Assembly (NCBI GenBank): GCA_046761065.1 | Contig: JBHIFL010000040.1 | Location: forward strand, 1-38,916 | Reading direction: 5' to 3' | DNA: 38,916 nt | Source of the DNA: Candidatus Heimdallarchaeota archaeon | Lineage (GTDB): Archaea; Asgardarchaeota; Wukongarchaeia; Wukongarchaeales; JBHIFL01 | Part shown: piece after piece, positions 10,214 through 11,644 of the stretch | Layout of the letters: each line of letters opens with the position of its first letter | Position numbering within the stretch: the first letter of the stretch is position 1 | The notes under the pieces: model-generated | What the model saw: only the letters and a program-made list of their open reading frames with translations | Databases searched by the model: none | Told to the model about the DNA's origin: nothing | Position numbers and translations under genes: made by a program

Positions 10214-10807
10214 AACGGAGCTCTCTTTTGGAGGCGAACCGCTATCATTGGGATTAGAGTATCTTAAGCAGGCTCTGTTCTCGTTTAAAACTAAAATATT
10301 TCTCACTAGTAAAGTTGTTTTCAAATAATATTCTTTGGGGGTGAAAATCTCCTTTAAACAAATTCAAGTGAAATGTATACGATCTGGGAGATGGAATTTT
10401 TCGATGTATGATTCAGGCACGTCTGGAACCCACAAGCGGTCAAGTTAAGGTAAGCTAATTTCCGCCTTGATCTATGGCGCTATCCACATCAAAGCGGATT
10501 TTCTAGGTCCTAGTATGACCTGGGCTACAAGAGGTGGGGTTCTAACTGCATTCTCGTTTCTTGTCTATCAAATATATTCTGGGGCATTATGGGGTGTTGC
10601 ATATGTAAAAAACAAGAAGACTCATCCCCCTTTTTGTAGGCCACCACCTCCACAACTATTTGGCGAACAGGCTGGCAACCATAGTACTCTAACTTGGAAA
10701 GTCGAAATAGAGGCGCAAAACATTTATGGAAAGAACATTCCCCTGTACAATGATGGGAAACCGATTGTGAATCCATGAGCTGCATCCCCTGTTGAGGTTT
10801 ATCAGGC

Positions 10808-11644
10808 ATGAAAGACCGGGGATCTAAGAACGTGAGAGGCCTTGACATGTGGTTCAAAAAGCTAAGAAAAGACAAGAAAGAGCCACCCACGAAACCCGAA
10901 GAGGAAGAAAAAATAGCAGAAGGAATGCCCAAGCAAGAGGTCAAAAAACCGGAAGATGAGGCGAAACCGCGGAGAGAACCTACGAAGACGGAACAAGAAC
11001 CCTTAGAGCAAGTCAACGCGGAAGAAATGGCGCCCCCTACAACACCGGAGTTGGAAGTTAAGGACTTCTTACAGAGCCGAGCAAGCCCGTTTACTATTAG
11101 AGAACTAACCAAAGGCACTAATATTCCTCTCAAAACCGCAAAAACCGCGTTGCAAACGCTGATTTCAACGGGAGCAGTTGATACCCGCACCTTTGGAAAA
11201 ACTGTAGTATACTGGAGAACTGGCCGCTTTAAAGCAGGGATTGAAGCCGTGCCATTGGGAGAAGGTGTAAAGGAATCCAGTCAAGAGGAAATTCGGCGCC
11301 TTAAAGAAACGATATCGCGGTTAGAGCAAGAACGCGTCGCTCAAACGAGGGATTATGAAAAACTCAAAAATCAACTTCAGGAGATGGAAACAAAAGAGCG
11401 AGAACGCCAAGCAGAACGACTCCCAAACCTCCAAGAACATATTGCAAAATTGGAAGAAGAGAAGAAGACCCTGTTACAGCAGGTTAAAAAGTTAAGAACG
11501 GAATTAGTTGGATTTCAAACAAAATACGCAGGGAAGGAAACCGAATGGAAAGCCGTGGCGGAACGAATGGCCGAGGAAATGGCCGCTCGGGCGGGGACCT
11601 CAATCGAGGAAGTCCTGGAATTTTTTGAGGCCCCGGGCTACTAG
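10808..11644 (+). CDS. Winged-helix + coiled-coil protein resembling Hop2/Mnd1
   Basis: Charged low-complexity N-terminus, wHTH aa ~81-136 ending in LQTLISTGAVDTRTFGKTVVYW, two coiled coils (~158-200, ~205-240) and a C-terminal W-x15-G-x9-F-x2-P cap. The start may be ATG 10847. Confidence 0.75.
   Translation: MKDRGSKNVRGLDMWFKKLRKDKKEPPTKPEEEEKIAEGMPKQEVKKPEDEAKPRREPTKTEQEPLEQVNAEEMAPPTTPELEVKDFLQSRASPFTIRELTKGTNIPLKTAKTALQTLISTGAVDTRTFGKTVVYWRTGRFKAGIEAVPLGEGVKESSQEEIRRLKETISRLEQERVAQTRDYEKLKNQLQEMETKERERQAERLPNLQEHIAKLEEEKKTLLQQVKKLRTELVGFQTKYAGKETEWKAVAERMAEEMAARAGTSIEEVLEFFEAPGY

Follow-up and report, generated by a model that had tools for sequence, protein, structure and literature searches.

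Do archaea encode relatives of the meiotic recombination cofactors Hop2 and Mnd1? The question is raised by an open reading frame (ORF) on contig JBHIFL010000040.1 of Candidatus Heimdallarchaeota archaeon (GenBank assembly GCA_046761065.1). We refer to the whole 38,916-nucleotide stretch that was analyzed as the window, and to the 278-residue product of the ORF as the target. A first-pass annotation of the window had proposed that the target is an archaeal homolog of both proteins. Both belong to the core of the meiotic toolkit, and surveys of that toolkit count them among the few genes of meiosis for which prokaryotes have no homolog (PMC2488364). Work on RadA in Asgard archaea and on how sex arose traced the recombinase only, with no mention of Hop2 or Mnd1 and with other components left to be followed (PMC12722695). 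In full-text searches that combined Asgard with Mnd1 or with Hop2, we found no paper reporting a homolog. The explanation that we prefer, with a probability of about 0.6, is that the target is an Asgard homolog of Mnd1, Hop2 and Swi5 that may work as a dimeric cofactor of RadA.

Sequence and structure searches converge on Mnd1 and Hop2

When the target sequence alone was run in phmmer against a set of 1.8 billion cluster representatives, only 16 proteins were recovered, and one of these is the Mnd1 of Trypanosoma vivax (so named by its sources, and carrying PF03962 and PF18517), matched at E 7.8e-4 over residues 83-229. The top match of the single sequence in the PDB was Giardia Mnd1 (4y66_A, E 0.014). 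A profile built from the family again had 4y66_A as its best match (E 7.6e-5), with the winged-helix domain (WHD) of Hop2 (2mh2) at E 0.0077 and Swi5 (3viq_B) at E 0.066. The first-pass annotation had proposed matches to strings of Hop2, and two of these, YLQEQNRPYS and YGKQKIYF, are indeed present in the mouse Hop2 WHD (2mh2), where they align with the family profile.

Alignment of 15 Asgard family sequences with 10 eukaryotic Mnd1 proteins in hhalign gave 97.6% and E 3.4e-12 over the WHD. When match states were taken from the first sequence, the alignment ran collinearly over 176 columns, from the first helix of the WHD to the last residue of the C-terminal cap (98.1%, E 9.8e-14), and the W, G and P of the cap coincided with the W, G and P of Mnd1. 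As a control for specificity, the family WHD was compared with an unrelated archaeal-type winged helix-turn-helix (wHTH) repeat family (DUF7342/TrmB type): it scored 58.5 against Mnd1 and 40.5 against the control, and Mnd1 itself scored 37.6 against the control.

Structural comparison led to the same proteins. An AlphaFold2 (AF2) model of the target, built with the 15-sequence family alignment, had a predicted local distance difference test score (pLDDT) of 85.5. In a Foldseek search of this model against the PDB, chain 4y66_C of the Giardia Hop2-Mnd1 complex ranked first over 211 columns (E 3.7e-4) and was the sole match with E<=0.001; the mouse Hop2 WHD (2mh2) ranked second with a TM score of 0.76 on the target. 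In an ESM Atlas feature search, the nearest named clusters were all eukaryotic Hop2 or Mnd1 (score 0.88, 199/256 features), a match that counts as a lead and not as proof by the tool's own calibration.

Matches to Pfam models are spread across the family, with Mnd1 HTH found in 9 of the 15 members, Swi5 in 8 (E<=0.01), TBPIP in 3 and LZ3wCH in 1. The Mnd1 HTH score of one member, P0019, is 28 bits, above the gathering threshold (GA). Two of the proteins matched by phmmer, P0011 and P0017, consist of four tandem winged helices with a PF[TS]..E motif and score 62 bits against DUF7342 and 30 bits, above GA, against the TBPIP/Hop2 WHD model. Because these unrelated wHTH repeat proteins pass its GA, the TBPIP/Hop2 WHD model is not specific for Hop2. 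With sequence, profile-profile, structure and language-model searches in agreement, the proposal of an archaeal Hop2/Mnd1 homolog with the same domain order holds, and we regard homology of the target to the eukaryotic Mnd1/Hop2/Swi5 superfamily as well supported.

The C-terminal cap resembles those of Mnd1 and Swi5

The target ends in a cap whose W247, G263, F273 and P276 lie where the first-pass annotation had placed them, as do the other motifs that it quoted. The register that it gave for Mnd1 is also correct: the ten eukaryotic Mnd1 proteins that we fetched all carry W-x15-G-x9-F-x2-P in the same register and with the same spacing as the target. A cap-only hhalign, with both families cut at W-5, recovered the exact register at E ~1e-3, with a score of 17.5, where 50 shuffles of the columns gave at most 14.9.

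The same segment connects the family to Swi5. The Pfam Swi5 GA of 22.1 is passed by P0014 (28.3 bits, over the whole 80-position model), P0016 (23.9) and P0024 (22.3), by a member from genome G079 (24.5) and by the C-terminus of a short paralog encoded elsewhere in the target genome (22.3). The target and this paralog match each other in BLASTP at E 1e-20, cap included, and the target is linked to Swi5 because its cap is clearly homologous to the paralog and family caps that pass the Swi5 GA. PF18517 (LZ3wCH) reaches E 0.0038 at best, and in one family member only. Because the compact family members have caps that fit Swi5 no worse than they fit LZ3wCH, the Mnd1/Hop2/Swi5 superfamily as a whole is the better placement for the family. 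The earlier description of the target as a 'pre-duplication' Hop2/Mnd1 relative is one that we do not retain, as the target is a long derived form.

Swi5 (Sae3, of the Swi5-Sfr1 and Mei5-Sae3 complexes; PF07061; 3viq) is, like Hop2-Mnd1, a cofactor of Rad51 and Dmc1, and its capped zipper resembles LZ3wCH. In several family members the last zipper together with the cap reaches the Swi5 GA, whereas that of the target does not. Swi5 is also a protein of ~85 residues without a winged helix, which takes its DNA binding from its partner Sfr1, while all family members carry a winged helix. HHpred matches Swi5 with both Hop2 and Mnd1, and LZ3wCH superposes on Swi5-Sfr1C and suffices for binding to Dmc1 filaments (Kang et al., PMC4402518). 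A cap that resembles both Swi5 and Mnd1 is the pattern that the literature would predict for a true relative. Modeled on its own in AF2 (pLDDT 88), the C-terminal 64-residue stretch of the target is a three-helix hairpin.

Domain architecture of the target

The succession of wHTH, coiled coil, break, second coiled coil and cap described in the first-pass annotation was confirmed, the wHTH and cap by the AF2 model and the two coiled coils by heptad analysis (Table 1). The modeled winged helix spans residues 82-137 in the order H-H-H-strand-strand. Its wing motif, TFGKTVVYW, terminates in W136, which is invariant in the family and occupies the alignment position of Trp70 in Giardia Mnd1; Ile63 and Tyr68 of that protein correspond to F129 and V134. 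In the Giardia protein, Trp70 is part of the WHD-WHD interface, where conserved hydrophobic residues hold two WHDs side by side (PMC4402518). The wing glycine is flanked by basic residues (R127 and K131 in the target, [RK][RK]IG[RK] in the family), and the wing lysines of Mnd1 and Hop2 touch the DNA backbone (PMC4402518).

The rod that follows the WHD appears to be built from two segments. The first is a 46-residue insertion relative to the short paralog (P0022). Heptad register differs between ~aa 159-185 and ~aa 190-235, with the shift falling around Pro205; the AF2 monomer model draws one continuous helix, unbroken for 83 residues (aa 157-239), across this heptad break. The second coiled coil has L, I, V or M at 7/8 a/d positions and is present in all family members. 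It is the predicted equivalent of LZ3 of Mnd1 and of the zipper of Swi5. The two helices of the cap are modeled at aa 244-262 and aa 266-272. At the other end of the protein, the N-terminal tail is confined, in the family alignment, to the long subfamily from Heimdallarchaeota and is absent from the short paralog and the compact members.

Table 1. Features of the target gene and of other genes in the same genome. Positions are those of the window unless a contig or locus is named.
Feature	Position	Strand	Remarks
Whole ORF	10808..11644	+	278 aa plus stop, ATG-to-stop; syntenic ortholog, dN/dS 0.17
Alternative start M14	nt 10847	+	265 aa; used by some gene callers
N-terminal tail, aa 1-80	10808..11047	+	Lys/Glu/Pro-rich, low-complexity, likely disordered; dN/dS 0.16
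WHD, Mnd1/Hop2 type, aa 81-137	11048..11218	+	Pfam, hhalign, AF2, Foldseek
Flexible linker, aa 138-156	11219..11275	+	AF2 pLDDT <50
First coiled-coil segment, ~aa 157-190	11276..11377	+	Heptad register 5; not in short paralog
Register break/junction, ~aa 191-205	11378..11422	+	Charged stretch to Pro205; weak a/d positions; pLDDT dip; approximate boundaries
Second coiled coil, leucine zipper, ~aa 206-239	11423..11524	+	Heptads, alignments, hhalign
C-terminal cap, aa 240-278	11525..11641	+	Two short helices; W247-x15-G263-x9-F273-x2-P276; most conserved part
Short paralog P0022, 151 aa	contig C3:24714-25163 (L002:1489-1941)	+	WHD, one leucine zipper, same cap
RadA genes and fragment	C1:29946-30665, C1:141308-142024, C4:59840-60580, C138:4585-5286, C140:6152-6652		Two on one contig

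The order of these parts is that of Mnd1 and Hop2 (PSMC3IP/TBPIP; PF03962, PF07106, PF18517; 4y66, 2mh2), in which a winged helix is likewise followed by a broken coiled-coil rod and a last zipper with capping helices. The cores are of similar size (~200 aa), and in the eukaryotic proteins as well the wing ends in a conserved aromatic-Trp motif. The target differs from them in its archaeal origin, in its low identity (~20%) and scores below the Pfam thresholds, and in its additional 80-residue charged N-terminal tail. Two coiled-coil segments can be discerned in the target, as against three zippers with two kinks in Mnd1. Its distance to Hop2 is about the same as that to Mnd1.

A possible dimeric cofactor of RadA

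How might such a protein work? Two chains would pair through a parallel coiled coil. The most likely product is a homodimer, favored over an obligate heterodimer because no partner paralog of equal length exists. The dimer would set two winged helices side by side at one end, where duplex DNA would be bound without sequence specificity, and the capped helical bundle at the opposite end would dock on the filament of RadA on single-stranded DNA. Docking may stabilize the filament and aid the capture of duplex for strand invasion, in the manner of Hop2-Mnd1 and Swi5-Sfr1 with Dmc1 and Rad51. Putative counterparts of all the parts used by Hop2-Mnd1 are present in the target, and a role as RadA cofactor is plausible, at a little under even odds.

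Candidate partners are present in the genome. It encodes four full-length RadA paralogs of 315-327 aa (Table 1), each with an N-terminal helix-hairpin-helix (HhH) domain and with 42-64% mutual identity. One of them has an altered Walker A context (GAYGSGKT), and a RadA fragment at a contig end is 87% identical to the copy on contig C4. Two clades of RadA have been reported (PMC12722695). Five other Asgard genomes have 1-4 RadA copies, with or without a family member. We rejected the notion that four copies are special to the target genome, as 1-4 copies are common in Asgard. The first-pass annotation had noted that neither radA nor a second paralog lies in the window; the genome holds these four RadA genes and, on another contig, the 151-aa paralog.

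A patchy Asgard family with long and short forms

The family was found in Asgard archaea only; by their source names the members come from Heimdall-, Hod-, Prometh- (Loki) and Thorarchaeota. Of 400 Asgard species genomes that were scanned, 15 gave a match, one of which covers the coiled coil only and is probably spurious. Positive genomes are concentrated in five GTDB families, with, for example, 8/22 genomes positive in one and 2/2 in another. The typical member is compact (130-180 aa) and consists of a WHD, one zipper and the cap, with the winged helix at the N-terminus in all members. The long subfamily (P0001, P0003-P0007 and P0009) is known only from the Heimdall lineage of the target. 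To the compact plan it adds the charged, disordered tail and a first coiled-coil segment of ~46 residues. The target is not the ancestral form; it is an elongated version, specific to its lineage, of a protein family that is otherwise compact.

Two copies of the gene occur in the target genome only; other positive genomes in the 400-genome scan are single-copy. The short paralog has a GNAT-like gene among its neighbors and no recombination genes, and a search for viral relatives made with it found none. In a maximum-likelihood tree of Asgard members and eukaryotic Mnd1 (no Hop2 or Swi5 sequences), the clade of long forms, that of short Heimdall forms and the remaining Asgard members meet in an unresolved trichotomy, with eukaryotic Mnd1 outside on a very long branch. 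The trichotomy and the long Mnd1 branch argue that the duplication into long and short forms is not recent and give no sign of transfer from a eukaryote. The protein cluster of the target carries a precomputed Pfam label, PF27605; because of this label, the family may already be catalogued under some name.

The gene and its locus

Is the gene itself real? The M1-M14 stretch (13 residues) is kept in homologs of ~40% identity (RGLDMWF) and a stop codon lies just 5' of the ATG at 10808, which makes that position a plausible start. The closest homologs (75-80% identity) come from Asgard metagenome bins. An ortholog with 77% identity stands in the same gene order in an NCBI 'Candidatus Heimdallarchaeota archaeon' metagenome-assembled genome (MAG), and we measured selection against this syntenic ortholog by Nei-Gojobori counting. 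The ratio of nonsynonymous to synonymous divergence (dN/dS) was 0.17 for the whole gene, 0.085 for the winged helix and 0.16 for the N-terminal tail, compared with 0.083 for the adjacent aldehyde:ferredoxin oxidoreductase (AOR) gene. Over the last 33 codons, which encode the cap, there were zero amino-acid changes at a proportion of synonymous differences (pS) of 0.31. The gene is real and under purifying selection, which is strongest on the cap.

The gene lies between a ferredoxin-AOR pair and a pyridoxal phosphate (PLP)-dependent threonine-synthase-like gene. Further neighbors encode an ornithine/aspartate carbamoyltransferase (OTCase), a zinc-ribbon membrane protein and a major facilitator superfamily (MFS) transporter, and all neighboring genes are intronless and closely packed. 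The gap upstream of the gene (window 10214-10807) is unusually long at 594 bp, compared with ~260 bp in the orthologous MAG; its only ORF encodes 103 aa (10467-10778) and has no Pfam match. An Rfam search of the whole window gave no match. The stretch is present in 4 DNA runs, all from one hydrothermal-vent metagenome study, with no RNA run listed.

We compared gene context over 13 loci from 12 genomes. The only conserved neighbors were a ~300-aa protein on the opposite strand and an archaeosine tRNA-guanine transglycosylase, conserved within two related families only. The ~300-aa protein has no Pfam match and lies tail-to-tail with the family gene in two GTDB families of Asgard archaea, f11 and f12 (8 loci; for example L037:9198-10088 on the minus strand and L035:6045-6998 on the plus strand), and the transglycosylase lies on the other flank in f11. 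In genome G005, a family member adjoins a gene for a 151-aa protein with Ribosomal_L13e and helix-hairpin-helix (HHH_5) domains (L042:7418-7873, plus strand).

Alternative explanations

Could the target instead be a DNA-binding protein with a winged helix and a coiled coil that has nothing to do with recombination, for instance a regulator of transcription or a protein of the nucleoid or of segregation? In that case only old winged-helix ancestry would connect it with Mnd1 and Hop2, and the likeness of its cap would be convergent or functionally irrelevant. A number of our results point this way or weigh against a RadA cofactor of the Mnd1/Hop2/Swi5 type. The fold of the WHD is indistinguishable from that of MarR/ArsR/AspA-type regulators (Z ~10), and when the full model was re-ranked with VIA, the winged helix was the only part that aligned, its partners being generic regulators. 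Orthologs of the target score 21-24 bits, and the target 19.3, against the model of the haloarchaeal wHTH family DUF7342 (PF24033; GA 31.6). The target alone stays below threshold with Pfam Mnd1 HTH (20.2-21.4 bits, GA 23.5) and TBPIP (15.9-16.8 bits, GA 22.8). In the Pfam comparison suggested by the first-pass annotation, the target thus falls below both of these thresholds and has no match to LZ3wCH, and some family members lie above the Mnd1 or Swi5 thresholds. Statistics for the cap taken alone are weak: its profile found nothing significant in the PDB (Swi5 at E 1.4), the C-terminus of the target had no match to Pfam Swi5 or LZ3wCH, and with the 64-residue model Swi5 came first in Foldseek (3viq, TM 0.51, E 4.6) and second of 48,161 chains in VIA-align (Z 5.2), both within noise. 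Recombination genes are absent nearby, none being a conserved neighbor at any of the 13 loci, and the family is spread patchily across Asgard (14-15/400 species genomes). The target genome also encodes ArsR-like wHTH plus coiled-coil proteins. Two of these, of ~157 aa, are very alike, lie on separate contigs (C14:52617-52973 and C81:4230-4442; L054, L056) and are the best DUF7342 matches of the genome. DUF7342 and the ArsR/MarR-type archaeal regulators with wHTH and coiled coil resemble the target in having a winged helix followed by a helical segment, but they lack the W...G...F..P cap, and so do these best-matching proteins of the target genome; a search of 121 Asgard genomes found no DUF7342 proper. 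With the family WHD, Mnd1 gives a clearly better score than the control wHTH family does, the full-length Mnd1 alignment is collinear, and the cap is the most constrained segment of the protein and passes the Pfam Swi5 threshold in several members. In light of this evidence we consider an unrelated DNA-binding protein unlikely, and prefer the Mnd1/Hop2/Swi5 homolog.

A different arrangement of the same parts would have the long protein and its short paralog on contig C3 form a heterodimer, as an archaeal counterpart of Hop2-Mnd1 or Swi5-Sfr1. The eukaryotic complexes are heterodimers of paralogs (PMC4402518), the two Heimdall paralogs of this one genome have WHD, last zipper and cap in common, and their long and short forms fall in separate clades that the tree does not support as sisters. 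However, the rods differ by ~46 residues, which makes this pairing less likely; we infer that a parallel heterodimer could not pair both its winged helices and its caps. The two genes are also unlinked, and the other positive genomes among the 400 are single-copy. We view the heterodimer as improbable. Finally, the sole homologs outside Asgard are eukaryotic, the Asgard distribution is patchy and the bin has an estimated contamination of 8.2%, any of which might suggest that the gene is a eukaryotic contaminant or was recently acquired from a eukaryote. Yet the gene has no introns and its tightly spaced neighbors (ferredoxin-AOR, PLP enzyme, OTCase, MFS) are prokaryotic, the same synteny recurs in an independent NCBI Heimdallarchaeota MAG, MAGs of Hod-, Prometh- and Thorarchaeota carry relatives on long contigs, Mnd1 is matched at no more than ~20% identity and in the tree a very long branch sets eukaryotic Mnd1 apart. 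That the contig is eukaryotic, which the first-pass annotation had named among the findings that would undo its proposal, is excluded by gene neighborhood and synteny, and contamination or recent transfer of the gene is very improbable.

Implications for the origin of recombinase cofactors

A preprint of October 2026 lists an Asgard-eukaryote 'Swi5/Sae3' structural cluster (bioRxiv 10.64898/2026.10.28.762692), which is probably the family described here. What our analysis adds is the long paralog, the most Mnd1/Hop2-like member by its length and two-segment rod, together with the presence of a short form beside it in the same genome, the measurements of selection and the specificity control for the WHD.

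If the target is a true relative, it combines in one chain the DNA-binding head of Mnd1 and Hop2 with the filament-binding tail that Mnd1 shares with Swi5. Such a relationship would put the origin of the cofactors before eukaryogenesis and would suggest a single origin of both eukaryotic cofactor complexes. A bolder version, which we hold as speculative and on balance doubtful, is that the Asgard family, with a WHD and a Swi5-like capped zipper in one chain, is the common ancestor or the sister of Hop2-Mnd1 and Swi5(-Sfr1), and that the long and short Heimdall forms serve different RadA paralogs. Specialization for strand invasion would then have begun before eukaryotes and before the split of Rad51 and Dmc1. 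Were the target an ordinary regulator, it would still show the source of the Mnd1/Hop2 winged helix. The finding raises the question of whether a rod-shaped helper that captures double-stranded DNA was already in use by the archaeal RadA filament; the part of the recombination toolkit formed by the recombinase cofactors probably predates eukaryotes.

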